Positions 48,013 to 64,000 of a DNA stretch of 64,000 nt are shown here, piece after piece. Numbering within the stretch: position 1 is the stretch's first letter; every line of letters begins with the position of its first letter. The notes below the pieces were generated by a model that had not been told where the DNA came from, searched no databases, and saw nothing but the letters and a program-made list of their open reading frames with translations. The translations under genes and the position numbers were made by a program. Origin of the DNA: Deltaproteobacteria bacterium (GTDB lineage: Bacteria; Myxococcota_A; UBA9160; PR03); the NCBI GenBank assembly GCA_035063765.1, contig JAPSFT010000011.1:64854-128853 (forward strand). Direction: 5' to 3'.

Positions 48013-49359
48013 CTACCGTCGCCCACCACGGGCCCTTAGCTCAGCGGTCAGAGCACCCGGCTCATAACCGGTGTCGTCCCTGGTTCGAATCCAGGAGGGC
48101 CCACCCGTAACACCGCGTAGTTTCTTGAGTTCAATCCTCGGACCCTTGTCGCCAGGTTGTCGCCAACCCGGCTTCGGCGGTCGAAGCACCTCGACGAGTG
48201 CATTGTCGGCGAGACGCGCGTAGCGGCGCGTCGACTGGATCGACGCGTGGCCGAGGAAGCGCTGCAGGTGCCGCTCCGGAACGCCGCGGCGGATCGCGTC
48301 GGTCGCCATCGTGTGCTTCGTGCCTTCGTAGAGCGAGACGTGCGGGAGGTCGGCTGCCTCCAGCGCTGCGGCCCAGACGCGCTGGAGCGCCTTGTGCGGC
48401 CACATCCGGCCGGTGCGTGGGTTGGGGAATAGGGGCTTTCTAGAGAAGCGGCCCGCCGGGTCGACGTGCCGATCGATCCAACCGGCGAGCTCCCGGCTGA
48501 CCGGCAGCCGTTTCGGCTTTCCGGTTTTCGTGCCGCGGATCTCGGCGCCGACGGACTTCGACTCGGCGGCCTTGTCGACGAAGAGCCAGCCGTCCCGGTA
48601 GTCCGCGACCGTGAGCGCCCGCGCCTCGCCGGGCCGCAGCCCGAGATGCGCGAGCGCGAGGAAGATCCCGCGATCCGCGTCCGGGATGTGCGCCACCGCC
48701 GCGTCCTGATCCGTGATCGAGAGGATCCGCGGCTCGTGCTCCTCGACGCGCACGGGCGGCACGCGTGGCGCCTTCGGAATCTCGCCGCGCAGCTCCAGCC
48801 AGCGCAGGAACGAGCGCATGTAGCCGAGGAAGTTCCGCCGCGACTTCGGGCTCTGCTTGCGGTCCGCGAGCCAGAGGCTCCAGTCCTCAAGTGTCCCGTA
48901 GGTCACCTCGTAGATCGAGATGCGGTCGAAGAACGAGAAGTGCCCGCCGGGAGCCGCAAGCCGCTCGAGCTCCCGCACGAAGTTCGGTGAAAGCGAGCCG
49001 GCAGCCATCTCGCGGCGGCGCAGCTCGAGCCAGCGCGCGAGCCAGGTCGGCACGAGGTTGGTCGGTGAGCCGGTCGGCTGGTAGCGCGCCAGCACCACCT
49101 CGACCGACACCCCCTCGGCGACCTCGTCGCGGATCCGGTCGAGCAACCGCTGCGCCGTCGCCTCGTCCGTGATGCGGATCCCGCGGTTCGACCACACCCG
49201 CCCGACCGGCCGGAAGTCCAGGTAGAACTCCCGCACACCGTCCTCGCCGCGCGAGCGGCTCCGGATGCGCCCGAGCTTCGCCACGAGGGCCCAGCGTACC
49301 GCAGGGGCGGCAGCGGCCGGCGAGGCGAGGAGCCGGGCGAGGGAAGCCACGTCAGGCAT
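48013..49359 (-). CDS. int: Tyrosine recombinase / phage-type integrase
   Basis: In frame 48013..49461 I start at ATG 49359 (MPDVASLARLL...). Catalytic-domain blocks are LALAHLGLRPGEARAL (Arg), GTKHTMATDAIRRG and FLGHASIQSTRRYARL (His...Tyr). The ORF continues antisense through the whole tRNA gene before its stop. Confidence 0.85.
   Translation of the reverse strand: MPDVASLARLLASPAAAAPAVRWALVAKLGRIRSRSRGEDGVREFYLDFRPVGRVWSNRGIRITDEATAQRLLDRIRDEVAEGVSVEVVLARYQPTGSPTNLVPTWLARWLELRRREMAAGSLSPNFVRELERLAAPGGHFSFFDRISIYEVTYGTLEDWSLWLADRKQSPKSRRNFLGYMRSFLRWLELRGEIPKAPRVPPVRVEEHEPRILSITDQDAAVAHIPDADRGIFLALAHLGLRPGEARALTVADYRDGWLFVDKAAESKSVGAEIRGTKTGKPKRLPVSRELAGWIDRHVDPAGRFSRKPLFPNPRTGRMWPHKALQRVWAAALEAADLPHVSLYEGTKHTMATDAIRRGVPERHLQRFLGHASIQSTRRYARLADNALVEVLRPPKPGWRQPGDKGPRIELKKLRGVTGGPSWIRTRDDTGYEPGALTAELRARGGRR
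48030..48103 (+). tRNA. tRNA with CAT anticodon (elongator Met, or Ile2 if lysidine-modified)
   Basis: Manual cloverleaf: acceptor GGGCCCT/AGGGCCC, D arm GCTC-AGCGGTCA-GAGC, anticodon arm CCCGG-CTCATAA-CCGGT, T arm CCTGG-TTCGAAT-CCAGG, discriminator A. CCA is not encoded. By my fold the variable region is 6 nt, which needs checking. Confidence 0.85.
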
Positions 49360-50429
49360 TCCCGCGCGCTTCGGTCGGCGTCTCGGCCATGGCTTCCCCT
49401 CATGCGGGGAGGCGCTGTTGGAGAGAGCAAGTGCGGTGCCAGCGCTCCGGATCGGGCGCATCCCTGCAAGTCCGCGCGCTCACGGCGGTTCGCATTGGCT
49501 GCGGTCACGACCGGGTCCGGGGATGGCTCGCAGTCTCCAACCAAACGCCGCCAGCGTGTGGCTGGCGCACGAACTCCGGATCGATCGCGGGAGGCGCGAC
49601 TGCCGTCGCTCAGCCGCAAGCGGTGCCGACCGCCTGCGGCCCAGCTACCGACGGAGGCGCCGAAATCGGGCCCGGAGTGCAGGAGTCCTGCAGCGACTCT
49701 GCAGGGGCAGCGTTCAGCTTCCTTGCGGACATCGCTCCGCCGAGCGGCCTTCGCGGGAACCGACACCGCGCAGAGCGCAGGCGGAGGATTCCTCCGCCAC
49801 GTCTCGAGTACTCCCTCGCATTCCCGAGGGCGTACAGGGACTTCCGCGAATCCCTCCGTCACTTATCTTGCATTCGCACCGATACCTGCGACTTCTGTCC
49901 CTCTCTCCACATCCAGCCTGCCGAACGCTGCGTCGACGAGTTCGATACCCGCCCGACGCGCTTCCGCGGCGCTGCAGCCGATCGACACTTCGCGATCCAA
50001 GGTGCTGCAGAGGCGCTACCAACCAGGTGCCGTGGAGCTGTGTCGGGGCTTCCATTCGCCCAGCCGCGTAACAGCGCGGGCCATGATCAAGACCGGTTCC
50101 AAACTGGGCCAAGATGGCCCACGAACGCGATCATGGCCCATGAAATGTCGAGCAGTGGCGGGCTCTTCTGGGGAAGTGGACCGCCTTTATCTTGCGCTCG
50201 CATCGTTCCTTCGACGCACTCCTGCAGAGCCTCTGATCCCACGTCACCATGCGCGGACGCGCTGCGATGGCGCCGCCCATCGGCTCGCCAAGTGACGTGC
50301 GGTCCGTCTGCAGCAGAGGCTCGACGCGAGGCGCAGTCGCGGTCGGCAACCTGGTCGTGCCATGATCCCGCCGCGCAGCCGCTCTTCCGCCGGGGACGCG
50401 CGTCGAGATGGAGTGATCCGGGTCTGTCG

Positions 50430-51365
50430 ATGCAGGCATACGTCGGAATCACGGACTACGAGTGGTACCAGCTTCTCGCGAGTCGTCCGCAGCTCGACGA
50501 CGTGAACTTCTGGCAGCCGGGCGGGACCCGAGTCTTCCGGGCTCTCCAAGCGGGCGAGCTCTTCCTCTTCAAGCTCCATGCTCCGCGTCACTCGGTGGTT
50601 GGCGGTGGCTTCTTCGCCCATGCCACCAGGTTGCCCGTGAGCCTCGCATGGGAGGCGTTCGGCGAGTCGAACGGAGCGAGTTCTTTGGCACAGATGCGGG
50701 CGCGCATCGAGCAGTACCGGCGCGCCCCAGCTCAGCCCCACGAGGACTACACGATCGGCTGCATCCTCCTGGAGCAGCCCTTCTTTCTGCCCGAGGAGTT
50801 GTGGATCCCCGCTCCGCCCGACTGGCACCCGAACATCGTCCAAGGCAAGACGTACGACCTGAACGCTGAGCCGGGACGATCGTTGTGGCTCCAGGTAGAG
50901 GAGAGGATCCGAGTGCAGAGCAGCGGACAGGGATGGCCCGCACAGTGGCGTGAGCCCGGCCATCCCCGGTACGGCGAGCCCACCCTGGTGCGCCCGCGCC
51001 TCGGCCAGGGAAGCTTCCGGATTCTCGTAACCGACGCGTACGACCGGCGCTGCGCCGTCACAGGAGAGCGCGTCCTACCGGTCCTCCAGGCAGCCCACAT
51101 TCGGCCCTACGCCGCGGGAGGCGAGCACCGCGTCGACAATGGCCTGCTCCTCCGAAGCGACCTCCACACCCTCTTCGACCGGGGCTACGTGACCGTCACT
51201 CCGGAGCTTCGGCTCGAGGTGAGCCGTCGCATTCGCGAGGATTTCGAGAACGGCCGGCACTATTACGCGCTGCACGGAGAGCGGGTTCGGGAGCCCGTGG
51301 AGGAAGGTCAACGGCCCGCTGCCGAGTTCCTGCGCTGGCACAACGAGCAAGCATTTCTCGAGTGA
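50430..51365 (+). CDS. HNH nuclease (HNH_2-like) with N-terminal beta-barrel-like domain; candidate type IV restriction enzyme
   Basis: In frame 49389..51365 I start at ATG 50430 (MQAYVGITDYEWYQLL...). The C-terminal HNH block is RCAVTGERVLPVLQAAHIRPYAAGGEHRVDNGLLLRSDLHTLFDRGYVTV. Confidence 0.7.
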   Translation: MQAYVGITDYEWYQLLASRPQLDDVNFWQPGGTRVFRALQAGELFLFKLHAPRHSVVGGGFFAHATRLPVSLAWEAFGESNGASSLAQMRARIEQYRRAPAQPHEDYTIGCILLEQPFFLPEELWIPAPPDWHPNIVQGKTYDLNAEPGRSLWLQVEERIRVQSSGQGWPAQWREPGHPRYGEPTLVRPRLGQGSFRILVTDAYDRRCAVTGERVLPVLQAAHIRPYAAGGEHRVDNGLLLRSDLHTLFDRGYVTVTPELRLEVSRRIREDFENGRHYYALHGERVREPVEEGQRPAAEFLRWHNEQAFLE

Positions 51366-51667: not shown

Positions 51668-52258
51668 ATGGGCAATGTCACCGAGTACCTGAGCGAGTGG
51701 GGGGTGGAGATCGACGAGGGCAAGTTCCTCGCGTTGCTCCGCGAGACGCTTGAGCAGATCGCTGGCAAGGATCTCTGGGCGGAGCCGGAACAGGAGCTAC
51801 CGCCCGAAGAGGTCGCTGTGCTTCACAGCGGCGGCTTCTCGACACGGCGCCAATCGCTCGGCAGCGATGACCCGCTGTTTCGCGGGGCTCTCGACTTCAG
51901 TGCGCTGATCGCAACGGCGGTTTCGACCAAGGAGGCGGCGAAGCTGCTCGACGTGGACCCGAGCCGCATCCGCCAGCGCTTGCTCGCTCCTCATCCAAGC
52001 CTGTATGGCGTGAAGTGGCGCGGCGAGTGGCTACTGCCGCGTTTTCAGTTCACGGGTAGGAAGGAGGTTCCTGGTCTTGACGAGGTCGTGCCCCGCCTCG
52101 ATCCGGGCCTGAATCCCGTCACGGTTGCTCGTTGGTTCCTATCGCCCAGTCCTGACCTTGTTGCAGAGAAGAGCGGCGACGAGCCGATGAGCCCGCGGGA
52201 GTGGCTGCTAGCCGGCCACTCGCCGATGGAGGTCGCTCGTCTGGCCGAAGGGCTCTGA
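51668..52258 (+). CDS. Xre/MbcA/ParS-like antitoxin (HTH plus DUF2384-like C-terminus)
   Basis: 196-aa ORF. It has the HTH-like segment VSTKEAAKLLDVDPSRIRQRLL and the C-terminal MSPREWLLAGHSPMEVARLAEGL, typical of antitoxins partnered with RES toxins. Its position immediately upstream of a RES gene supports the call. Confidence 0.65.
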   Translation: MGNVTEYLSEWGVEIDEGKFLALLRETLEQIAGKDLWAEPEQELPPEEVAVLHSGGFSTRRQSLGSDDPLFRGALDFSALIATAVSTKEAAKLLDVDPSRIRQRLLAPHPSLYGVKWRGEWLLPRFQFTGRKEVPGLDEVVPRLDPGLNPVTVARWFLSPSPDLVAEKSGDEPMSPREWLLAGHSPMEVARLAEGL

Positions 52259-52896
52259 GCGCGCGCTTGGCCAAGCTTCCTGAACCCCCGCCTCCTGCCG
52301 AGCTCGTCGCTCGCACAGTGCCCGCGGTCAAGAGCCTGCCCGCAGGAAGCCTGATCTGGAGAGTCTACTTCCGCGGCGGTCCCCATCCCGCAAGCTGGAA
52401 CCAGTTTCGATCCTACGGCCCCGTCCCTTCGGGCCGGTTCGATCATCATGATCCTCCGCCCCACCACCAAGAGAGAGCCATCCTCTATGCCGCGATCCAC
52501 GGCCCGACGTGCCTCGCGGAGGTCTTCCAGGAGTCACGGGTCATCGACCGCCACCACAACGATCCATGGTTGGCCGCGTTCGCCACGGAGCGCGCACTCG
52601 ATCTGCTGGATCTGTCCGGCACCTGGCCGACGCGCGCTGGTGCATCCATGGCCATCAACAGTGGGCCGCGGCCTCGTGCTCAGCGTTGGTCACGCGCGAT
52701 CTACGATGCGTACCCGGAGATTGATGGAATCTACTATCCGTCGTCGATGAGCGGAAACCAGCCTGCTGTCGCCCTCTTCGAGCGTGCGCTTGGAGCGATA
52801 CCGAAGCAGCCGCGCCTGAACAGAGCGCTTGCTGAACCGCCGCTCTTGATCCCGATCACCAACGCCGCTGCGCAATTCGGCTATCGGGTTGTTTGA
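52201..52896 (+). CDS. RES domain toxin (NAD+-targeting toxin family)
   Basis: The R-E-S triad context is SGRFDHH (R), LYAAIHGPTCLAEVFQE (E) and IDGIYYPSSMSG (S). The start is uncertain: the track ATG 52201 overlaps the antitoxin by 58 nt, and TTG 52267 just after the antitoxin stop is an alternative. Confidence 0.75.
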   Translation: MAASRPLADGGRSSGRRALSARLAKLPEPPPPAELVARTVPAVKSLPAGSLIWRVYFRGGPHPASWNQFRSYGPVPSGRFDHHDPPPHHQERAILYAAIHGPTCLAEVFQESRVIDRHHNDPWLAAFATERALDLLDLSGTWPTRAGASMAINSGPRPRAQRWSRAIYDAYPEIDGIYYPSSMSGNQPAVALFERALGAIPKQPRLNRALAEPPLLIPITNAAAQFGYRVV

Positions 52897-52921
52897 ACGG
52901 TTCTCTGGAGTTGAACCAGTC

Positions 52922-54016
52922 ATGCCCATTCAACACGCGATCTGGAAAGTTGGAGAACGACCCTCCGCGCTCTCTGCCAGCCGTCTGGCAAGCGAACAGC
53001 AGCTCGAGGAAATGATTGCGCGCGACCCGAGCATCCTCTCGAGCCAGTGGATGCTCATCGGCCGGCAAGAGGGCACGAGCCATGGCGGACGAATCGATCT
53101 GTTGGCAATTGCTCCCGACGCTTCCTTGGTCTTGATCGAACTCAAGCGCGACCGTACACCGCGTGAGATCATCGCCCAATCCCTCGACTACGCGTCGTGG
53201 GTGGAGCAGCTCGGCGCGGAGAAGATTGCACAGATCTATCAGCGGTTTTCGAACGGCGGAAAGTTGGACGAGGCGTTTCGGGAGCGGTTCGGCATCGAGC
53301 TGGATGAGGAGACCCTCAACCAATCGCACCAGATCATCATCGTCGCCGCAGAGCTCGATGCCGCGACGGAGCGCATCATCGGATACCTCAACGCTCGGGA
53401 CATCGCGATCAACGTCGTCTTCTTCCAGGTTTTCCAGCATGGTGACGAGCAGCTGCTGAGTCGGGCGTGGCTCATTGACCCCGGAGAGACGCAGGTGAAC
53501 GTCGCGAGCACGACCAAGAGCAAGGGCGAGAAGGAGCCCTGGAACGGTGAGTACTACGTCTCTTATGGCCCCACGTCGTCGCGCTCTTGGGATGAGGCGC
53601 GCCAGCACGGTTTCATCAGCGCGGGTGGTGGAAGCTGGTACAGCCAGACGCTGAAGCTGCTTTCTCCGGGAGACCGCGTGTGGGTCAAGATCCCCAAGAC
53701 CGGCTACGTGGGGGTTGGGCGAGTCAAGGAGCCGGTGCGTTCGGTGAACGACTTCAAGGTCGAGACACCGTCCGGCGAACGATCGGTACTGGAAGTGCTG
53801 CGGAACGCTGAACGCTACCGGCGAAGCGCCGATGACCCGGAGAAGGCGGAGTACTTCGTCCGGGTGCAATGGCTCGATACCGTCCCCGAGGCTTCGGCAG
53901 TGAACGAGGTGGGCCTCTTCGGGAACCAGAACACCGTATGCCAGCCTACGACACCCAAGTGGCGGCACACAGTTGAACGACTGAAGACGTATTTCCCGAA
54001 ATGGGACGCTAGTTGA
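52922..54016 (+). CDS. NucS/DUF91-like PD-(D/E)xK nuclease fused to an uncharacterised C-terminal domain
   Basis: In frame 52889..54016 I start at ATG 52922, with GGAG upstream. The N-terminal half GRIDLLAIAPDASLVLIELKRDRTPREIIAQSLDYASWV matches the DUF91/NucS nuclease signature (D...ExK). The C-terminal ~170 aa (WNGEYYVSYGP...SPGDRVWVKIPKTGYVGVGRV) is unassigned. Confidence 0.65.
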   Translation: MPIQHAIWKVGERPSALSASRLASEQQLEEMIARDPSILSSQWMLIGRQEGTSHGGRIDLLAIAPDASLVLIELKRDRTPREIIAQSLDYASWVEQLGAEKIAQIYQRFSNGGKLDEAFRERFGIELDEETLNQSHQIIIVAAELDAATERIIGYLNARDIAINVVFFQVFQHGDEQLLSRAWLIDPGETQVNVASTTKSKGEKEPWNGEYYVSYGPTSSRSWDEARQHGFISAGGGSWYSQTLKLLSPGDRVWVKIPKTGYVGVGRVKEPVRSVNDFKVETPSGERSVLEVLRNAERYRRSADDPEKAEYFVRVQWLDTVPEASAVNEVGLFGNQNTVCQPTTPKWRHTVERLKTYFPKWDAS

Positions 54017-54044: not shown

Positions 54045-55571
54045 GTGAAGCGGGTACTTCTCGCATGGTTGGGTCGAACCGACCTCGACTGCGCACGTGC
54101 GAATCGCCCGGCATCGCCGGGGCCGACCGCGAGCGTGATCGAAGCGCGCACCTTTGACGAACTGGTGCTGCTCTCGAACTATCCCCGCGAGGAGTCAGCG
54201 GACTATGTGCGTTGGCTTCAGGAGCGGGGAAGCCCGCGAGTGCATCTGCTGACATCGGACCTGGGCGATCCGACGGACTACAGCGGCATCCACGACGCAG
54301 TTCTTCACTCCATGGAGTTCGTGGAACGAGAGCTCGGACCCGATGCCGAGCTCGCGATCCACATCAGCCCAGGAACACCCGCTATGCAAGCGGTCTGGGT
54401 GCTTCTGGCCAAGACCCGCTTCCCCGCTGAGTTGATCCAGTCGCACGAGAAGACGGGCGTCCGGACGGTCTCGATCCCGTTCGATATCTCCGCCGAGTAC
54501 GTGCCGGATGTGTTGCGGCGCACCGACGAGAAGCTCCAACGCCTCAGCGATGGGCTGCCGCCCGAGGCGCCCGAGTTCGATCAGATCATTCGACGGAGCC
54601 CGGCGATGGAACGTGCCGTGGCCCGCGCCCGCCTGGTAGCACCGCGAAACGTTCCTGTGCTGATCGAGGGAGAGTCGGGCACTGGCAAGGAACTCTTCGC
54701 GCGGGCCATTCATGCGTCCAGCCCTAGGTCCTCCGGTCCGTTCGAGGCGGTGAACTGCGGAGCACTTCCTCGCGAGCTCGTGGAGTCCTTGCTGTTCGGG
54801 CACGAAAGGGGGGCGTTCACTGGCGCAACTCAGCAGCACAAGGGCCACTTCGAGGTGGCGAGCGGTGGCACGCTCTTTCTCGATGAAGTCGGTGAACTTC
54901 CGCTGGATGCGCAGGTCAAGCTGCTGAGAGTTCTACAGGAACGACAGGTTCGGCGTATGGGTTCGGATCGCACGATTTCGGTCGATGTGAGGATCATCGC
55001 AGCGACCAACCGGAATCTCCTTGAGGAAGCGGCAGCCGGCCGCTTCCGTGAGGACCTCTATCACCGGCTCGCAGTAGGTGTGATTCGGCTTCCTGCGCTT
55101 CGCGACCGCCAAGGCGATCTCAGCTTGCTGATCGAGCGCCTGCTCGAGCGGATCAACCAGGAGGCGGCCTCCCAGCCGGGCTACGCACACAAGGAACTCT
55201 CTCCTGCCGCAAGAAGTCTTCTGATCGCCCACTCGTGGCCCGGTAACGTGCGAGAACTCCAGAACACGCTGCTACGACTGTCGATTTGGACCTCGGGCCC
55301 GCGGATCGGAGTCGATGACGTCCGAGAGGAGCTCCTGCAAGTCGGGTCTGGATCGAGATCGGACCTGCTCGGCCGGCCGCTCGGAGAGGGGCTGCAAGTT
55401 CGCGATCTCGTGGCAGAATTGGCCCGCCACTACATCGAGCGTGCCCTCCAGGAGGCTGGGGGCAACAAGACGCGAGCTGCCAAGCTACTCGGTATGGCGA
55501 GTTACCAGACCCTCACGGACTGGATGAAGAGATACGGGATCAAGCTGCCCAGGAAGAGGCGGGAAGGGTGA
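54045..55571 (+). CDS. Sigma-54-dependent transcriptional activator with RtcR-like (CARF-type) N-terminal sensor domain
   Basis: 508-aa ORF with a GTG start and GAGAAGG about 8 nt upstream. The N-domain begins [14 protein letters not shown] and contains [30 protein letters not shown]. As I remember it, E. coli RtcR has ...IHITTGTHVAQICWFLLAEARYLPARLIQS. The AAA+ core has [25 protein letters not shown] and FLDEVGEL. The C-terminus is a Fis-type HTH ([25 protein letters not shown]). Confidence 0.85.
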
Positions 55572-55644: not shown

Positions 55645-58600
55645 GTGCCCTTGGACCATCTCCCGCCGAGTCCGTGGAACCCGATACTCCGAGACGGCCG
55701 CGAGGGCCACGTCTTGGTGAAGTCGATCAACTTCGAGTTCCTGCGAGCAAAACGCACCTACCTGGCCGACCTGGGCGGCTTCGCCGAGCAGTACCTCCAT
55801 CCCGATCCCGCGAGTGCACTGATCAAGCTCCGCACCTTCGCGGAGGCGATGACGAACGACCTTTACACCGCATTGGGCCTCCGCCAGCCCTTCGAGGCCG
55901 ACTTCTTCACCCTTCTGGACGGCCAGCCGTTCAAAGACGCTGTTCCTCAGGTGGTGCTGACGAAGATCCACGCCGTCCGAAAGCTTGGGAACAAGGCGGC
56001 CCACGGCGGCGCCGTCAGCTTCGATATGGCGGGGCGTGCCCTCCACGAGGCCTACCACCTCGGCAGCTGGCTTCACCTCGCCGTGGACAAGGGCTCCCAG
56101 AGCGATTGCCCGAAGTTCACGGTGCCTCCCGCTGGCGGTGTTGCAGAGTCGACCCGGGCTGACCTGAAGCGTGAGAAGAAGGCAGCGCTTGAGAAGCTGG
56201 CCGCCCAGGAAGCACAGATGGAGAAGCTCCTCTCGGAGCTTGACGCGGCCCGCGCGAAAGCCGAGTCCGCCGAAAAGTCTGCGCAGGAGCTCCAGCTCAT
56301 CATTCAGTCCGGCCAGCAGGCCGCGAGCGAGCTCTCCTTCAGCGAAGCCGAGACCCGAAAGTTCCTCGTCGAGACCATGCTGGTCGCGGCTGGCTGGGAT
56401 GTCGGAGCCGCGGGCAAGAGCACCACGGACGTCGGCCAGGAGGTGGACGTCGAGCACCAACCGACGGAGACAGGGCACGGCAAGGCGGATTACGTCCTTT
56501 GGGACGACGCCAGCAGGCCCCTTGCCGTTGTCGAAGTCAAGAAGACCTCGATTGAGGCCGCTTTGGGCCGCCACCAGGCCCGCCTCTACGCCGATGGCCT
56601 CGAGCAGATGTACGGCCAGCGTCCGGTGATCTTTTACACGAATGGCTTCGACCTCTACCTGTGGGACGATGCCCAGAACGAGGTCGATCGCAAGATCTAC
56701 GGCTTCTACTCGAAGGACAGCCTCGCCTACCTGCACTTCCAGCGTGCCAGCCGCGTCCCTCTCCACGAGGTACCCATCAGTCGAGAGATTGCAGGACGCC
56801 TGTACCAGGTGGAGGCCGTGAAGCGCGTCGGCGAGCGCTTCGACCAGGGACGCCGCAGGGCGTTGATCGTACAGGCCACAGGCACGGGCAAGACCCGCGT
56901 CGCGGCATCGCTCGCCGATGTCTTGCTGCGAGCCAACCGGGCCAAGCGGATCCTGTTTCTCTGCGACCGCCGCGAGCTTCGCAAACAGGCCCTGAACACC
57001 TTTAAGCAGCTCCTCCCGAACGCCAAGCGGGTATCGGTCACCGCCAAGACCGCCCAGGAGCGCGAGCACCAGATCTACCTGGCCACCTATCCGGCGATGA
57101 GGACCTGCTTTGAGAGCTTCGACGTGGGCTTCTTCGACCTGGTGATCGCCGACGAGTCGCACCGCAGCATCTACAACCGCTACAAGGACCTCTTCGACTA
57201 CTTCGACGCGCTCCAGGTGGGGCTCACGGCCACGCCGGTGCGCTTCATCGACCGCAACACCTATGACCTCTTCGGCTGCGAGGATCAGGACCCCACCGCG
57301 CACTACCCCCTCGATCGCGCCATCGACGAGGGCGTTCTCCTCCCCTTCCGCGTGCGGGCGTATCAGACCGAGTTCCAGCGCAAGGGCATGAAATGGAAGG
57401 AGATGAGCGAGTCCCAGCGGGCTCAGCTCGAGCAGCAGATGGCGAATGCAGAGAGCTTCGACTACGAGGCCGCAGAGCTCGACCGCTACGTCTTCAACAA
57501 GGACACCAACCGCGCGATGCTCCGCAAACTGATGGAGAGCGGCATCCGCGACGCAACCGGCCAAGCGCCCGGCAAGTCCATCGTCTTCGCCCGCAGCCAC
57601 CGCCACGCCATCCTGCTGAAGGAGCTTTTCGACGAGCTCTATCCGCAGTACGGCGGAAGTTTCTGCACCGTGATCGACAACTACGACCCGCGCGCCGAGC
57701 AACTGATCGACGACTTCAAGGGCCAGGGCCAGCACAACGACATCCAGATCGCGATCTCGGTCGACATGCTCGACACCGGCATCGACGTCCCCGAGATCGT
57801 GAACCTGGTCTTCGCGAAGCCCGTCAAGTCCTACGTCAAGTTCTGGCAGATGATCGGGCGCGGAACCCGCAGGTGCGAGAACCTCTTCGGCCCGGGTGAG
57901 CACAAGAAGGAGTTCCTCGTCTTCGACCACTGGGGCAACTTCGAGTTCTTCGGCGAGACCTACGTCGAACCGACGCCGTCGCCTCGCAAGTCGCTGCTGC
58001 ACCAGCTCTTCGAGGCCCGCGTGGAGCTGGCCGAGGCCGCGCTTCACCGGCCTGATCTGCCCACCTTCGAGGCGGTGATCGAGCTCCTGCGCCAGGACAT
58101 CGCGAGCCTCCAGGACACGGGCACCATCGCGGTGCGCGACGCATGGCGGACCCTCAAGAAGGTTGCCGACGCCCAGATCCTCAAGCAGTTCGACCCGGCC
58201 ACCCGGGCGGCCCTCCTACAGGAGGTCGCACCGTTGATGAAGGAGCGCGACATCCGCGGCCACGTCGAGGCCCACGAGTTCGATCTCCTTGTGACGCGCC
58301 TCCAGCGGGCGCAGATCACGGGCTCGAGCGAGCTCCAGGACCTGAAGGGCGACCTGCTGAACGCCCTCGCCCAGCTCAAGATGAACCTCGCTCAGGTAAA
58401 GGCCAAGGCCCAGACCATTGCCCACGTGAAGAGCGTCGCCTTTTGGGCCGAGCCGACCTTCGGCGCGCTGGAGGAGGCCCGGCTCGAGTTGCGGTCCATC
58501 ATGAAGTTGCGCGAGCGCCCTGCGGGTCCGGCCGACTACGCCCAGCTAGTCGATATCGCGGAGGACCTCTCGCTCGTCCGCGACGCCGACTACCCCGTCA

Positions 58601-59133
58601 AGATCGAGGGGCTCGATCAGGTGGGCTACCGCAAGCGCGTCGAGCAGGTGCTGCGCGACCTCGTCGCCAGCAATGGGACGCTGCAGAAGATCAAGGCCGG
58701 CCAGCCTGTGACCTCCCATGACCTCGACGATCTGGTGAGCCTCGTGCTCACCCAGAACCCCGATGTCGATCTCGCCAAGCTCGAGCAGCTCTATCCCAAG
58801 ACCGCGGGGCACCTCGACCTGGCGATCCGCCGTGTCATCGGCCTCGACGCGGATGCCGTCGAGAAGCGCTTCGAAGCGTTCGTCCACCAGCACCAGGCGC
58901 TCAATGCGCGCCAGGTGCGCTTCCTGAGCCTCCTCAAGAGCCTGATCGCGAGCGCCGGCAGCATCGAACTCGAGCGCCTTTACGAGCCGCCCTTCACGAC
59001 GCTCGATCCCGACGGCATCGATGGGCTCTTCGAAGACGAGGCTCAGATCGACGAGCTTCTCGGCCTCATCGCCAGCTTCGAGAATCCCGAACCCATCCCG
59101 GCCAACCCCGGTCCCGAAGGTCTCCATTCATGA
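55645..59133 (+). CDS. hsdR: Type I restriction enzyme R subunit with N-terminal DUF4145-like domain and coiled coil
   Basis: 1162-aa ORF. Its elements are:
- a DUF4145-like block ([17 protein letters not shown])
- a coiled coil (about residues 170-230)
- the PD-(D/E)xK nuclease ([10 protein letters not shown]...LAVVEVKK)
- SF2 motifs [23 protein letters not shown] and QMIGRGTR
- a long helical C-terminal region like the EcoEI-type R C-terminus. Confidence 0.9.
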
Positions 59134-60686
59134 TCACCGGCAAGCTCCGCAGTCAGATCGACAACCTCTGGACCCAGTTCTGGACCGGCGGCATAACAAA
59201 TCCGCTCACGGTCATCGAGCAGATCTCCTTCCTGATGTTCGCCCGCCTGCTCGACATCCGGGAGACGCGCGAAGAGCGCGTCTTCACTCGCAAGCACCGC
59301 GGCGAGGCTTTTCCCGGGAATCTCTTCGGGCCCGACAAGCAGCACCTACGCTGGTCGAAGTTCAAGCACGAGGGCGATGCCGCGCGCATGCTTGCCCTCG
59401 TTCGCGACGAGCTCTTCGCGCACATTCGTGCCGTCGCAGAGAAGCAGGATCGCCTGGGCGAGCACATGAAGGATGCCCAGCTCATCATCTCGAAGCCCAG
59501 TCTGCTCTACGCCGCCGTGAAGCTGATCGATGAGCTGCCGCTGGGCGAGGGCGACACCAAGGGCGATCTCTACGAGTACCTGCTCAGCAAACTCACCACG
59601 GCGGGCATCAACGGCCAGTTCCGCACGCCGCGCCACATCATCGACGTCATGGTGGCAATGGTGGACCCGAAGCCCACTGAGAAGGTGGGGGACCCGGCAG
59701 CCGGCACGGCGGGCTTCCTCGTGCAGACGATGCAGTACCTGCTGCGCAAGTACTCGTCGGCGGAGGGTCAGTTCCCGGCCGAGGGCGAGGACGGGCGGCC
59801 GGTGCTCGGCGACGATGGCAAGTCCGTCATGGTCTACACGGGCGACCTCCTCGAGCCGTACCGCGACCACATCCAGAAGGGGATGTTTTACGGCTTCGAT
59901 TTCGACGTCACGATGCTCCGCATCGCAGCTATGAACCTGATGCTCCACGACGTCGCCAACCCGCACATCTACTATCAGGACACGCTCAGTCGCGGTTTTC
60001 GTGAAACGCGCCCCGAACTCGCCGAGAACCACTTCGACGTCATCCTCGCTAACCCGCCGTTCAAGGGCAGCCTGGACGCCGAGGACATCGACCCAACCCT
60101 CACAGCCAAGATCAAGACCAAGAAGACAGAGCTGCTTTTCCTGGTCCTCATGCTCCGCATGCTGAAGAACCCTGGCGGCCGCGCCGCGGTGATCGTGCCC
60201 GAGGGCGTGCTGTTCGGCAGTTCGAATGCGCACGTTGCGCTTCGACAGATGCTGGTAGAAGAGAACCAGCTAGAGGCGGTGATCTCGCTTCCGTCTGGTG
60301 TGTTCAAGCCCTATGCGGGGGTCTCTACTGCGATCCTGGTCTTCACTCGCGGCGGCGAGACGACTGACGTCTTCTTCTACGACGTGCGCGCAGATGGGTT
60401 CTCCTTAGACGACAAGCGCGAACGCGTTGCAGGCGACGATCTGCCCGACTGCTTGTCGCGATGGCAACAGCGCAATGAGATCGGCCTTGGTGACCGTGCA
60501 GCGCAGTGTTTCTCAGTGATGGCTAACGAGATTCGCTCATCTAGCTACAGGCTTTCGTTCGCCGAATACAAAGCGACGCCCTATGTCGAACCTGACCTAG
60601 ACGACCCGACGGCATTGCTTCAGAGGCTTCGCGACCTTGAACGTGAGACTTCTGCGCGACTCGATGAGCTTGAGGACCTGCTGTGA
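59130..60686 (+). CDS. hsdM: Type I restriction-modification N6-adenine DNA methyltransferase subunit
   Basis: The ATG at 59130 overlaps the hsdR stop (ATGA). It has an HsdM N-domain ([30 protein letters not shown]), SAM binding ([13 protein letters not shown]) and the catalytic [10 protein letters not shown]. Confidence 0.95.
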
Positions 60687-61870
60687 GCACCGCCACCATC
60701 GTGCCGAGATGGCGCCCCCTGGAGGAGGTGGCGCCGACTGCATCTGAGCGTGTGCATCCGTTCACGGGTGAGAGGCGATACGTAGCAACGGGAGGGATTG
60801 ACGGGGGCGTCATCACGGACTCTGACATGGTCACGCACAGCATGAGGCCGACTCGAGCGGATCTGGCTGTAAGACCTGGCGACGTCATCTGGGCCAAAAT
60901 GAGGGCAACTACGAAGGTCTTTCACGTCGGCAAAGAGGATGCGTCGACCATCTTCTCAACCGGCTTCGTGGCGAGCCGCCCTCGGAAGGATCTAGTGCAC
61001 TCCCGCTACCTGTATCACTTTTTGAGGTCACCACTCTTTCAGCATAGGAAAGATCAGCTTTGCACGGGCTCAACGCAGAAGGCGATCACCAAGACCGGAC
61101 AAGCGAAGCTTCAATTCCCCTGGCTTCCGCTCGAGAATCAAGAGAGGGCAGCAGCGATTCTCGACCACGCGGAGGCGATTGAATCCAAAAAAAGACTCGC
61201 CATTGTGCTTGGGACCCAACTTGGGGACGCGTTGTTCCGCGAAGCGATCGCATCAGACGCAGAGGATCTCGAGATTGGCGAAATGCTACAGCGTGGAATT
61301 CTGATGCTTCATAAGGATGGCAACTTTGGAAGTGCCTACCCTCGCGCGAGAGACTTCACAGACGAAGGTGTTCCTTTTCTTACTGCAGCGAGCGTCACAG
61401 ACGAGGGGAAGCTTGAGGAGCGATCCGTTCAACGCTTGAGAGAAGAGAAGGCACAAGCTCTCCGATTCGGTTGGATCGAGAAGGGAGATGTTCTCCTCTC
61501 TCACAACGCAACGGTCGGCCGCGTCCTCTTGTATCGGGGAGAGTACAAACGCGCTTTGATCGGAACATCGCTGACTGCATTCCGACCCGATCCTAAGCGA
61601 CTGTTGCCCACCTTCCTGTTCGGTGCGTTGCGATCTTCGAGGTTCCAGGACGCTCTGAAAGCCAAGATGGCGCAAACAACAAGGAACCAGGTCCCCATAA
61701 CTGCGCAACGGCGATTGCGTCTTCCGTATGCACCAATGGGTGCTCAAGTTCGTTATGCGGAGTGCGCGAAGTCGGCAATGAGTCTCCAGCAACAGCTGGC
61801 GATTGCTCGCTTGGCCGCAGATGGCTTGCTGGCCGCATTGTCGAATCAAGCGTTCCGGGGTGCGCTCTGA
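60683..61870 (+). CDS. hsdS: Type I restriction-modification specificity subunit
   Basis: The GTG at 60683 overlaps the hsdM stop (GTGA). The 395-aa product has two variable target-recognition halves separated by helical conserved regions ([20 protein letters not shown]; [28 protein letters not shown]). This gene has the lowest G+C of the island by eye. Confidence 0.85.
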
Positions 61871-63474
61871 TGATCACCGCTCTGGAAGTCGACAACTTCA
61901 AGGGCATCGGCCGTCCGATCCGCATCGAGCTGCGCCCTATCACGCTCCTCTTCGGCCGGAACAGTGCGGGCAAGAGCACAATCCTGCACGCGCTCCACTA
62001 CGCGCACGAGATCCTGAGTCGACGGAACCTCGACCCGGACGCCACTCATCACGGAGGTGATGTCGTCGATCTGGGCGGGTTCCGGAGCTTCGTGCACGCC
62101 CAGGACACGAGCCGTGTGGTTCGCCTGCGCTTTGAACTCGACTTGACCAAGCATGAGCTCCCCGAGCTTCCAATGCTCGAGTCGGCTGCCGATGCCGACG
62201 AAGCCGAGGAGCTGCAGAGTCTGGAGCTCTTCGATGAAGGGCTGAGCACCGAGATTAGGTCCGGCTGGGTTGAGCTCCAGGTGCGGTGGAGTGGTGCGCG
62301 CAAGGCTCCGACCCTGCGCACCTATGAAGTGGGGATGAATGGCGAGGTGATCGGCCGGATCGAATCCAATGACGACGGTGCACAGGTGGATCTGTTTCCG
62401 AACCTGGCGCATCCCCTATTCGCGTACGACGGCCGGATCCCGGAGGAGGAGCGGCCGAGTCGCGAGGAGGTGGCATCGCGGTGGATCAGCGACACGCCTG
62501 GATCTGAGGCCGAGTACTGGCGCGGCCATCGCCTGCCTGTGGGTGGACTCGCGCGATCGAGCCTGCCCCGCTGGGGAGAGCTCCTCGCGCTTGACTACGA
62601 CGAGCAAGATGATTTCTACGCCTACCCGTTTCGGGAGTTTCGCTATCGCGTCTCGACGCTGATGGTGGGCCTGGGGCAGCTCCTCAAAGATGAAGTGGCA
62701 CAACTCCGGTACGTTGGGCCTATGCGTGACGTGCTCGCTCGCACGTACGCGTCTCCCCGCTACCTAGAGCCGCACCGCTGGGCGAGCGGGCTCGGTGCCT
62801 GGGATCGGATGCATACCCTTGGGCCTGAGTTCGTCGCGGGAGTGAGCGATTGGCTTTCCGACTCCGAGAAGCTCGACACGGGCTACGGCCTGGCGCTGAG
62901 GTCCTTCATCGAGCTTCCAGAGGACAGCGCACTCTGGCTCTCGATCGAGCGCGGCACATTCCTCGACATGTGGGACGATCTCGCCGCCGAGTTTCAGTCA
63001 CTCGAGAAGAGAACAGCGTTCCGCTTGGTGGACCCCACGTCCAGGATCGCCGTCCATCCCGCAGACGTCGGGGTGGGCGTCTCACAGGTCGTGCCGGTCG
63101 TGGTCGCTGCTCTCGATCCTGATCGGCCGAGCCTGACCGCAATCGAACAGCCTGAGCTCCACATTCATCCCAAGGTGCAGGTGGGGCTCGGTGATCTCTT
63201 CGCGAGCCAAATCGGAGACGGTACCCGCCGCTTCCTGCTCGAGACGCACAGCGAGCACCTGATGCTGCGATTGCTGCGGCGAATCGAGGAGACCCATTCC
63301 GGTGATCTACCGCCCGGTGCGCCAGCGCTTCGGCCTGACCAAGTGGCCGTCGTCTTCATCGAGCAGATCGAGGGGGAGGTCAAGGCGACCCAACTGCGCA
63401 TCGACGAATCGGGGGAGTTCGTCGATCGCTGGCCCCATGGCTTCTTCGAGGAGCGAGCGGAAGAGCTGCTCTGA
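61870..63474 (+). CDS. ABC/OLD-like AAA ATPase (AAA_15/21-type, DUF3696-like C-terminus) linked to the R-M operon
   Basis: The ATG at 61870 overlaps the hsdS stop (TGATG). It has Walker A LLFGRNSAGKST, then IEQPELHIHP and FLLETHSEHL (Walker B/H-loop style of OLD/ABC ATPases). The C-terminal IDESGEFVDRWPHGFFEERAEEL follows. No nuclease domain was recognised. Confidence 0.8.
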   Translation: MITALEVDNFKGIGRPIRIELRPITLLFGRNSAGKSTILHALHYAHEILSRRNLDPDATHHGGDVVDLGGFRSFVHAQDTSRVVRLRFELDLTKHELPELPMLESAADADEAEELQSLELFDEGLSTEIRSGWVELQVRWSGARKAPTLRTYEVGMNGEVIGRIESNDDGAQVDLFPNLAHPLFAYDGRIPEEERPSREEVASRWISDTPGSEAEYWRGHRLPVGGLARSSLPRWGELLALDYDEQDDFYAYPFREFRYRVSTLMVGLGQLLKDEVAQLRYVGPMRDVLARTYASPRYLEPHRWASGLGAWDRMHTLGPEFVAGVSDWLSDSEKLDTGYGLALRSFIELPEDSALWLSIERGTFLDMWDDLAAEFQSLEKRTAFRLVDPTSRIAVHPADVGVGVSQVVPVVVAALDPDRPSLTAIEQPELHIHPKVQVGLGDLFASQIGDGTRRFLLETHSEHLMLRLLRRIEETHSGDLPPGAPALRPDQVAVVFIEQIEGEVKATQLRIDESGEFVDRWPHGFFEERAEELL

Positions 63475-64000
63475 TGCTGTACGAGTTTGCGATCGAGCCG
63501 GAGTTGCTGACGAGCTGGGACAAGGCCCGCACGACCCTCAACCTCATGGGCTTCCAGCATGCGCGGGCCATCTCCGCCTACCCCTCAAGGAAGCGCTGGA
63601 AGAAGATGATCTTCGAGGCCTGTCGGAAGGCCGGCTGCGCGGATCGGGAGTTTGCGCGCATCCGCGAAAAGGTCCAGCAGTCCGACGCGAAGCTCGTCTG
63701 GGCAGGGTCGCCGGAAGAGTACGACGGATCGCTAAAGCCACAGGACGAGTGCTGGATTCGAAACGCCACTGATCGCCAGATCAAGAGGAAGGCCTTCCAT
63801 GCGATTCTGGCGACTCGAAACCCCAGCGGTCATCCCGACGTCGTGCTCGAAGCGGATGTAGACGAGTCTCACGCAAAGCTTGGAGTCGCTCGCGAGCTCC
63901 CCGTCCTGCGGCAACCGAAACCATTGGCTGGCCACATTGAGAAGCTCGTGCGCAACAGTCGTGTGCTCCTTCTCATCGACCCCCACTTCGATCCCTCGCT
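63474..64000 (+). CDS. Hypothetical protein, 5' part only (runs off window)
   Basis: The ATG at 63474 overlaps the ATPase stop (TGATG). My manual translation is open for all 175 codons to the window end (MLYEFAIEPELLTSWDKARTTLNLMGFQHARAISAYPSRKRWKKMIFEACRKAGC...LLLIDPHFDPS). It is absent from the ORF track only because no stop is reached. No family was recognised. Confidence 0.5.
   Translation, partial: MLYEFAIEPELLTSWDKARTTLNLMGFQHARAISAYPSRKRWKKMIFEACRKAGCADREFARIREKVQQSDAKLVWAGSPEEYDGSLKPQDECWIRNATDRQIKRKAFHAILATRNPSGHPDVVLEADVDESHAKLGVARELPVLRQPKPLAGHIEKLVRNSRVLLLIDPHFDPS

Follow-up and report, generated by a model that had tools for sequence, protein, structure and literature searches.

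In the 64-kb stretch of Deltaproteobacteria contig JAPSFT010000011.1 analysed here (hereafter the window), a type I restriction-modification (R-M) operon is prolonged at its 3' end by two genes, coding respectively for an ABC ATPase and for an effector-like protein, ORF3 (open reading frame 3, the third gene after hsdM), whose gene is cut by the window edge. We estimate at about 60% the probability that this pair is an autonomous, coupled ATPase-effector defence module of the kind formed by Menshen NsnB-NsnC and by HEC-03, devoid of the Menshen NsnA gene, and placed as a second layer behind type I restriction. Both the defence function and any physical coupling to R-M are inferred. The operon and the regulatory elements preceding it are composed as follows (nt, nucleotides; aa, amino acids).

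54045-55571 (+): predicted RtcR-like sigma-54 enhancer-binding protein, with a divergent CARF/RtcR N-terminal domain, an AAA+ Sigma54_activat domain and HTH_8, 508 aa
55573-55586 (+): sigma-54 type -24/-12 promoter cGGCACGgggaTTGCt, near consensus, 2 nt past the regulator stop and 59 nt before the hsdR GTG
55645-59133 (+): hsdR, type I restriction subunit of the EcoAI/EcoEI (type IB-like) kind, with N-terminal DUF4145, 1162 aa
59130-60686 (+): hsdM, N6-adenine methyltransferase subunit, 518 aa (precomputed Pfam matches HsdM_N and N6_Mtase)
60683-61870 (+): hsdS, specificity subunit, 395 aa (Pfam Methylase_S at 4e-12, in two stretches; PADLOC Specificity_I at 7e-51)
61870-63474 (+): 534-aa ABC ATPase of the NsnB/HEC-03/PDC-M55A clade, its C-terminal helix being DUF3696
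63474-64000 (+, window edge): first 175 codons of ORF3, a 311-aa effector-like protein

The five genes hsdR-hsdM-hsdS-ATPase-ORF3 form one coupled chain. The hsdS stop codon TGA (61868-61870) shares its A with the ATPase ATG (61870-61872), and the ATPase stop TGA (63472-63474) overlaps the ORF3 ATG (63474-63476) in the same way, each junction reading TGATG. An initial annotation of this DNA had pointed out these two 1-nt overlaps, and its coordinates, checked on the letters, are correct. Since 4-nt overlaps between hsdR and hsdM (59130-59133) and between hsdM and hsdS (60683-60686) add to the 1-nt ones, all five genes are coupled. The type I R-M set is complete, with HsdR, HsdM and HsdS genes all intact in the window. 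HsdR, whose start codon is GTG, matches ResIII, EcoEI_R_C, HSDR_N and DUF4145 in Pfam and restrict_EcoAI in NCBIfam (1e-74), and its translation shows an intact D...EVK nuclease motif. HsdM has NCBIfam matches to hsdM and to a MADS2-like model, each under the cut-off.

By its profile matches, the ATPase is assigned to a clade of DUF3696-tailed proteins which also holds NsnB, HEC-03 and PDC-M55A. Its Pfam matches, all above thresholds, are AAA_15 (8e-17), AAA_21 (7e-16) and DUF3696 (26.8 bits, for a gathering score of 22), and among PADLOC models the best is PDC-M55A (2.6e-44, 149.9 bits), followed by NsnB (5e-38) and the HEC-03 ATPase (2e-32). These matches agree with the initial annotation, which had proposed an ABC/OLD-like ATPase with a DUF3696 tail; the motifs it had read in the 534-aa protein (GRNSAGKST, EQPELHIHP, ETHSEHL and WPHGFFEE) are all present in the open reading frame 61870-63474. 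Across 49 homologues from related loci, the Walker A motif GxNSAGKS, the ETHSEH motif and the WPxGFFxE tail are invariant, and so are a Walker B motif EQPE instead of DEPE and the signature GxGxSQ. In classical ABC ATPases, a Walker B EQ slows hydrolysis. PARIS, Septu, Gabija, MADS and AbiL were considered and rejected, as the ATPase matches their models in the P-loop region only (AriA, 62 bits; GajA, about 32 bits; AbiLi, 27 bits; PtuA, 13 bits; MAD3, 34.5 bits for a cut-off of 420) and ORF3 matches none of them. The match to Old is likewise limited to the P-loop.

The complete ORF3 was recovered from identical contigs of public sequencing runs, dozens of which carry the exact ATPase and ORF3 proteins. 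It is an intact protein of 311 aa, with neither truncation nor frameshift past position 64000, so that the early stop envisaged in the initial annotation does not occur. The identical protein is on record, as hypothetical, under the name 'Chloroflexi bacterium CFX6'. At full length, ORF3 has no match in Pfam, PADLOC, NCBIfam or PDB sequences, and a comparison with Pfam PLDc and MIT_C gave no match even at E = 1. Its family is nevertheless large, with 97 clusters at 90% identity in a single-sequence search and 3,072 clusters at 50% identity in a profile search. Two candidates for domain-swapped relatives, in which the same N-terminal domain would be joined to another effector, were discarded: one is a frameshifted product (P0220), the other a probable chimera (P0099).

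Sequence searches gave nothing, and the fold of ORF3 could be seen from structure alone. Its AlphaFold2 model (mean predicted score of the local distance difference test, pLDDT, 93.8; predicted template modelling score 0.89) comprises an alpha/beta N-terminal domain, from residue 1 to about 138, which also gives a pLDDT of 93.6 when modelled alone, and a C-terminal domain, from about 138 to 311, with a predicted phospholipase D (PLD) superfamily fold. Foldseek matches in the PDB include PLD3 (8v07, 3e-5), Streptomyces PLD (1f0i), the PLD domain of SauUSI (7clg) and MITD1 (2ymb), with probabilities of 0.96-1.0, and TrmBL2 is also among the matches. The statement of the initial annotation that the ATPase partner belongs to no recognisable family therefore stands as far as sequence families are concerned, but not for structure, which gives the C-terminal domain a PLD fold. 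In an alignment of 34 members, down to 25% identity, the invariant residues are D169, H205, H253, R255, T259, G269 and D271, among them those of the block F-H-x-R-Y-V-L-T-D-R-G-G; the invariant positions from H205 to D271 fall past the window end. The motif H253-x-R255-x4-D260 is a variant of the HKD motif, with an invariant arginine in the place of the lysine, so that the canonical HxK(x)4D is not found. In the model, D169 lies after a strand (strand 2) and H253-x-R255 before a strand (strand 5).

We then analysed the occurrence of the pair in other genomes. A scan limited to one genome per species returned 67 loci, and neighbour counts were restricted to 50 loci, those for which 9 kb or more of upstream sequence is available. 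The ATPase and ORF3 genes are adjacent in 46 of these 50 loci, the remaining ones being visibly degraded. Their junction is a 1-nt overlap in 33 of 48 related loci, and in none of the 48 does the distance between the two genes exceed 9 nt. This regularity, the size of the ORF3 family and the confident model of the protein all speak against a chance arrangement. Some loci have the pair by itself, some have it as tandem duplicates, and in others it is joined to the 3' end of hsdR-M-S. An hsdM gene is found within 5 kb upstream and on the same strand in 22/50 loci, and an RtcR-like regulator is present in 22/50; both are found in 6/50 and neither in 12/50. Three further loci (L034, L055, L064) have hsd genes, with inserts between hsdS and the pair. 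The hsd-linked loci belong to Alpha-, Beta-, Gamma- and Deltaproteobacteria, Planctomycetes, Acidobacteria and Thermodesulfobacteriota, and in 16 of them the gap between hsdS and the ATPase gene is comprised between -10 and +10 nt. The closest relative of ORF3 (78% identity) lies in a locus of the same order: regulator, hsdR-M-S, ATPase, ORF3. In 12 full cassettes, the pairwise identities of HsdR and HsdM are rank-correlated with those of the ATPase (rho 0.89-0.93), mean pairwise identity being 0.73 for HsdM, 0.66 for HsdR, 0.55 for the ATPase and 0.42 for ORF3. The linkage to type I R-M proposed in the initial annotation is thus recurrent (the 22 loci with hsdM upstream, plus the 3 with inserts), and its reservation that the pair might never be hsd-linked in other genomes does not hold; the pair is not specific to R-M, however, as about half of the loci are without hsd. 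The initial annotation had also suggested that the pair may guard the R-M complex or be guarded by it, which is a conjecture. On the side of autonomy stand the adjacency of the pair, the 12 loci with neither hsd nor regulator, and tandem pairs with their own sigma-54 promoters; on the side of coupling to R-M, the tight hsdS-ATPase gaps and the identity correlations.

One element of the operon, absent from the initial annotation, tracks with the pair, namely the regulator and the promoter upstream of hsdR. The regulator matches RtcR (25.8 bits, for a gathering score of 23.1), Sigma54_activat (1e-69) and HTH_8 in Pfam, and its best NCBIfam match is RtcR, over the full length (358.7 bits, for an equivalog cut-off of 650). 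A genuine RtcR/rtcBA operon was rejected: the score is under the equivalog cut-off, and what follows 3' is not rtcBA but hsdRMS and the genes of the ATPase and of the PLD protein. From its sequence, the regulator is better described as an RtcR-like paralogue of the R-M-associated kind; such activators beside R-M systems were already noted by Makarova et al. 2014 (PMC4012209). The -24/-12 motif has two matches in the window, for 0.33 expected, the second being GGCAC-N5-TTGC at 49427-49440 (-), in or near the start of an integrase open reading frame. Neither sigma-70-like sites nor + strand terminators were found between 53.9 and 64 kb. It thus appears that, in the window, a stress-sensing RtcR-like regulator turns on the restriction genes and the pair in concert.

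This arrangement is found again in related loci. Homologues of the regulator (39-68% identity) adjoin the module in the 22 loci mentioned above, with or without hsd: in the Vicinamibacterales loci, which are without hsd, the regulator gene is immediately 5' of the ATPase gene, and in Beta- and Deltaproteobacterial and planctomycete loci it precedes hsdR. In about 20 related loci, the interval from the regulator to the first module gene contains GGCAC-N5-TTGC or a TGGCAT variant, and tandem arrays, such as L013, have a sigma-54 motif before the second pair as well.

Among known systems, the first one to compare is Menshen, a three-gene system (NsnA-NsnB-NsnC) reportedly described by Millman et al. 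in 2022. Its ABC ATPase, NsnB, carries a DUF3696 helix, has the DE of the Walker B motif replaced (EN) and shows GxG in the place of SGG (Li et al. 2025, PMC12065111). NsnC, encoded directly 3' of NsnB, has two domains, an inactive-PIN-like N-terminal one and a variable C-terminal nuclease (BECR, Toprim or PB-PLD1), and in the PB-PLD1 domain of some NsnC, strand 2 is followed by an acidic residue and strand 5 preceded by an H-D-R motif (PMC12065111). The window ATPase shares with NsnB the DUF3696 helix, a non-DE Walker B and the GxG signature. As for ORF3, the placement of D169 and H253-x-R255 fits the published description of PB-PLD1, and its two-domain layout may, more weakly, resemble that of NsnC, the PIN-likeness of the N-terminal domain being weak. 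The two systems differ in that the Walker B is EQ in the window ATPase and EN in NsnB, the inserts of the ATPase do not align to the NsnB profile, and ORF3 matches no PADLOC Nsn model. Above all, the gene directly 5' of NsnB in Menshen is NsnA, a ParB-DUF262 plus ParBDB protein (PMC12065111), whereas hsdS occupies this place in the window. The ParB-DUF262 motif of NsnA (QRxxxW...DGxQR) was absent from a six-frame scan of the window and of the 67 loci, and no recurrent DUF262 was seen among the 25 top families listed from a Pfam scan of 108 neighbouring proteins, which leaves room for single instances. The published Menshen census took ParB-DUF262 as its seed (PMC12065111), so that this variant, lacking NsnA, was out of its reach.

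HEC-03 is made of an ABC ATPase and a PIN-domain (VapC-like) protein, with no separate sensor gene (Payne et al. 2024, 10.1101/2024.01.29.577857). It protects E. coli alone, both genes being required and over-expression toxic, and it has been found embedded within another multi-gene defence system, Hma (10.1101/2024.01.29.577857). The window pair resembles it as a two-gene ATPase-effector set without a sensor gene, whose ATPase matches the HEC-03 model. It departs from HEC-03 in that ORF3 carries a predicted PLD-fold domain, has an N-terminal domain without the PIN catalytic set and does not match the HEC-03 partner model; moreover, the host system is a type I R-M, with the pair appended after hsdS, whereas HEC-03 is nested between Hma genes. 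PDC-M55, which gives the best ATPase match, is a PADLOC candidate known by family numbers (FAM_00005>>FAM_02935>>FAM_00004), but this is a three-gene cassette, and ORF3 matches none of its models. The initial annotation had envisaged that the pair might prove to be an already named system; this is half the case, the ATPase matching the PDC-M55A, NsnB and HEC-03 models whereas ORF3 matches no model by sequence.

Two other kinds of R-M-linked systems can be compared with the operon. PrrC, in the EcoprrI locus, and rloA/rloB, in Campylobacter type I loci, are ABC-ATPase-containing defence genes found in or beside hsd operons, PrrC being a single protein, encoded between hsd genes, that joins an ABC ATPase to an anticodon nuclease. 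RloB is a Toprim and not a PLD protein, and no sequence relationship of the window proteins with these was found beyond the P-loop. Toprim proteins of the RloB type are also used by NsnC as effector domains (PMC12065111). Superoperons led by RtcR, with type I R-M and ending in CoCoNuT (Bell et al. 2024, PMC11090510), share with the window an RtcR-like CARF/sigma-54 activator at the 5' end, a co-directional type I R-M and a terminal effector system, which in those superoperons may cause abortive infection (PMC4012209, PMC11090510). The terminal system is CoCoNuT (McrBC-type with HEPN) there, whereas it is the ATPase-PLD pair here, with no CoCoNuT genes visible.

On the reading proposed at the outset, an autonomous module behind type I restriction, the following mechanism can be put forward. 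An ATPase oligomer would restrain the PLD protein by means of its C-terminal DUF3696 helices and so keep it inactive, as in the NsnB4-NsnC2 complex, which is itself modelled (PMC12065111), and in Septu and PARIS structures. HEC-03, with its need for both genes and its toxicity on over-expression, offers a further analogy. An infection cue sensed by the ATPase would change its nucleotide state, and the PLD phosphodiesterase would be released or activated. Once active, the PLD enzyme would cut nucleic acid, the pair serving as a second defence layer behind type I restriction. Co-transcription under the RtcR-like regulator and sigma-54 would raise both layers once a signal of infection or RNA damage is perceived by the CARF-like domain.

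Several points weigh against this reading. First, the ATPase aligns to the NsnB and PDC-M55A profiles mainly at both ends (the N-terminal P-loop and the C-terminal third), its inserts remaining unaligned; because the matches span these two ends and not the inserts, we do not call it an NsnB orthologue. Second, ORF3 matches no PADLOC model, those of the PDC-M55 and HEC-03 partners included. Third, its motif is HxR and not HxK, and its closest structural analogues include the non-catalytic MITD1 and TrmBL2, so that its nuclease activity is putative. Fourth, the best PDB match of its N-terminal domain, the PIN protein PAE0151 (2fe1), is weak (E 0.05, probability 0.51, template modelling score 0.31); PIN-containing Rrp44 chains and Rossmann-like folds come next, and no invariant acidic tetrad is present in this domain, which may be an inactive PIN-like one. 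Fifth, the identity correlations within cassettes could partly come from common host-genome ancestry. Finally, since an R-M system driven solely by an inducible promoter would leave a self-methylation problem, a constitutive promoter which escaped detection is likely.

Among the alternatives, the one that best survives, though we hold it unlikely, is that the pair belongs to the type I enzyme as an obligate accessory, and acts as an anti-anti-restriction guard. HsdM2S1(R2) would replace NsnA as a DNA sensor, and the ATPase would sense whether the R-M complex is stalled, lacks a subunit or is blocked by a DNA mimic such as Ocr, and would unleash the PLD nuclease. The TGATG junction between hsdS and the ATPase gene, together with the short gaps in 16 other loci, would fit such a role, and so would the covariation of HsdR and HsdM with the ATPase, the single EcoAI/EcoEI-like hsd lineage shared by about half of the loci, and the failure to detect an NsnA-like sensor in the window or in the 67 loci; PrrC-EcoprrI and the Ocr-triggered PARIS are established precedents. 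It is a weakness of this explanation that in half of the loci hsd genes are missing within 10 kb of the pair, the closest Vicinamibacterales relatives of ORF3 being among these loci. Other genes also separate hsdS from the pair in the three loci with inserts, and HEC-03 functions without a partner system. Slightly more doubtful still is a complete circuit in which the R-M complex (HsdS/HsdM on DNA, or jammed by an anti-restriction protein) would take the place of NsnA and trigger the ATPase and then the HxR PLD protein, the whole being armed by the RtcR-like sensor. If true, a three-tier circuit of inducer, restriction and abortive effector would be held in one operon.

An improbable alternative bears on the activity of ORF3. 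Rather than a nuclease, the PLD-like protein would be a module for binding or regulation whose catalysis is altered, comparable to MIT_C in MITD1 or to the C-terminal domain in TrmBL2, and the pair would modulate restriction (alleviation, complex turnover) or act as a toxin-antitoxin-like addiction pair. The replacement of lysine by arginine in the HKD motif, the presence of MITD1 and TrmBL2 among structural matches, the annotation of Pfam AAA_21 as 'putative AbiEii toxin' and the Walker B EQ, with its slower hydrolysis in classical ABC ATPases, can be cited in its favour. Yet sequences as distant as 25% identity all keep H253, R255, T259, D169, H205 and D271, which points to an active or ligand-binding pocket, the best structural matches (PLD3, Streptomyces PLD and SauUSI) are active PLD nucleases or phosphodiesterases, and the related partners, NsnC and that of HEC-03, are effectors.

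Equally improbable is a mere neighbourhood, in which the pair would be co-transcribed by an accident of insertion and unrelated to R-M or to the regulator: defence genes do routinely cluster and embed in one another (10.1101/2024.01.29.577857), the window region looks like an integrase-bounded defence island and 12/50 loci have neither hsd nor regulator, but the five-gene order with overlaps or near-overlaps recurs in Chloroflexi, Alpha-, Beta-, Gamma- and Deltaproteobacteria, Planctomycetes, Acidobacteria and Thermodesulfobacteriota, and loci without hsd, too, can have the regulator and the sigma-54 promoter beside the pair, a recurrence unexpected under random insertion.

ABC ATPase-effector pairs, passengers in type I loci and RtcR-like control of R-M are themes already known. 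What is new is, on the one hand, a widespread and uncatalogued family of effectors with a predicted PLD fold and a Menshen core lacking NsnA and, on the other hand, the way in which this pair is recurrently wired to a single hsd lineage and to a sigma-54 switch of the RtcR-like kind. The family, of about 300 aa and at least 3,000 clusters at 50% identity, partnered by a DUF3696 ABC ATPase, has no Pfam, NCBIfam or PADLOC model, and present defence finders would flag the ATPase alone, if anything. If the NsnB-NsnC core circulates without NsnA, as proposed here, this is a gap in the Menshen census. The operon itself (RtcR-like activator, sigma-54 promoter, hsdRMS, ATPase, PLD) is a compact test case for layered immunity, on which sigma-54/CARF-like induction of type I R-M, the role of the pair as backup or as monitor, and catalysis by an HxR PLD protein can be tested. 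A sigma-54-driven type I R-M operon also raises the question of how methylation is kept up without induction.

Some related loci depart from the organisation of the window. In Vicinamibacterales (L008-L022), a single regulator stands before duplicated and diversified copies of the module: L013, for example, contains, between 3092 and 10933, the regulator, a sigma-54 promoter, a second ATPase gene (ATPase2), an ORF3-like gene (about 28% identity), a second sigma-54 promoter, then the ATPase and ORF3 genes. L021 and L022 have disrupted copies of the module. In five Verrucomicrobia loci (L061, L065, L067, L068, L072), the pair adjoins a divergent gene of about 305 aa. Five LysR-family Pfam matches among the neighbours are probably these divergent genes. 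Neither hsd nor RtcR-like genes are found in these loci, which hints at another regulatory solution. In the locus of the closest relative (L078, 9794-11540), ORF3 is followed by a sigma-54 promoter, TGGCACacgccTTGCT, and then by a gene coding for a 519-aa coiled-coil protein with repeated 'SEFSLD' units, a C-terminal D...EAK motif and no Pfam match, which may also belong to the regulon. In L034, a DUF2130 protein is encoded immediately 5' of the ATPase.

Upstream of the operon, the window contains a tyrosine recombinase/integrase gene (48013-49461, -; Phage_integrase, 4e-14) and a gene for a 658-aa protein with a C-terminal HNH_2 domain (49389-51365, +). A 196-aa protein without Pfam match (51668-52258, +) overlaps a 231-aa RES-domain protein (52201-52896, +; 8e-14), the two being probably an antitoxin and RES-toxin pair. 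Immediately 5' of the regulator, a 375-aa protein (52889-54016, +) has a weak NucS_C-like endonuclease match (23.0 bits, for a gathering score of 24). At the other end, the tail of about 190 nt that follows ORF3 has no Rfam match and does not align to the DNA downstream of ORF3 in the closest relative. All contigs with an identical ATPase or ORF3 end with this tail, about 190 nt past the ORF3 stop (L002, 5383-5574), and this common breakpoint suggests a repeat or a strain-variable junction.

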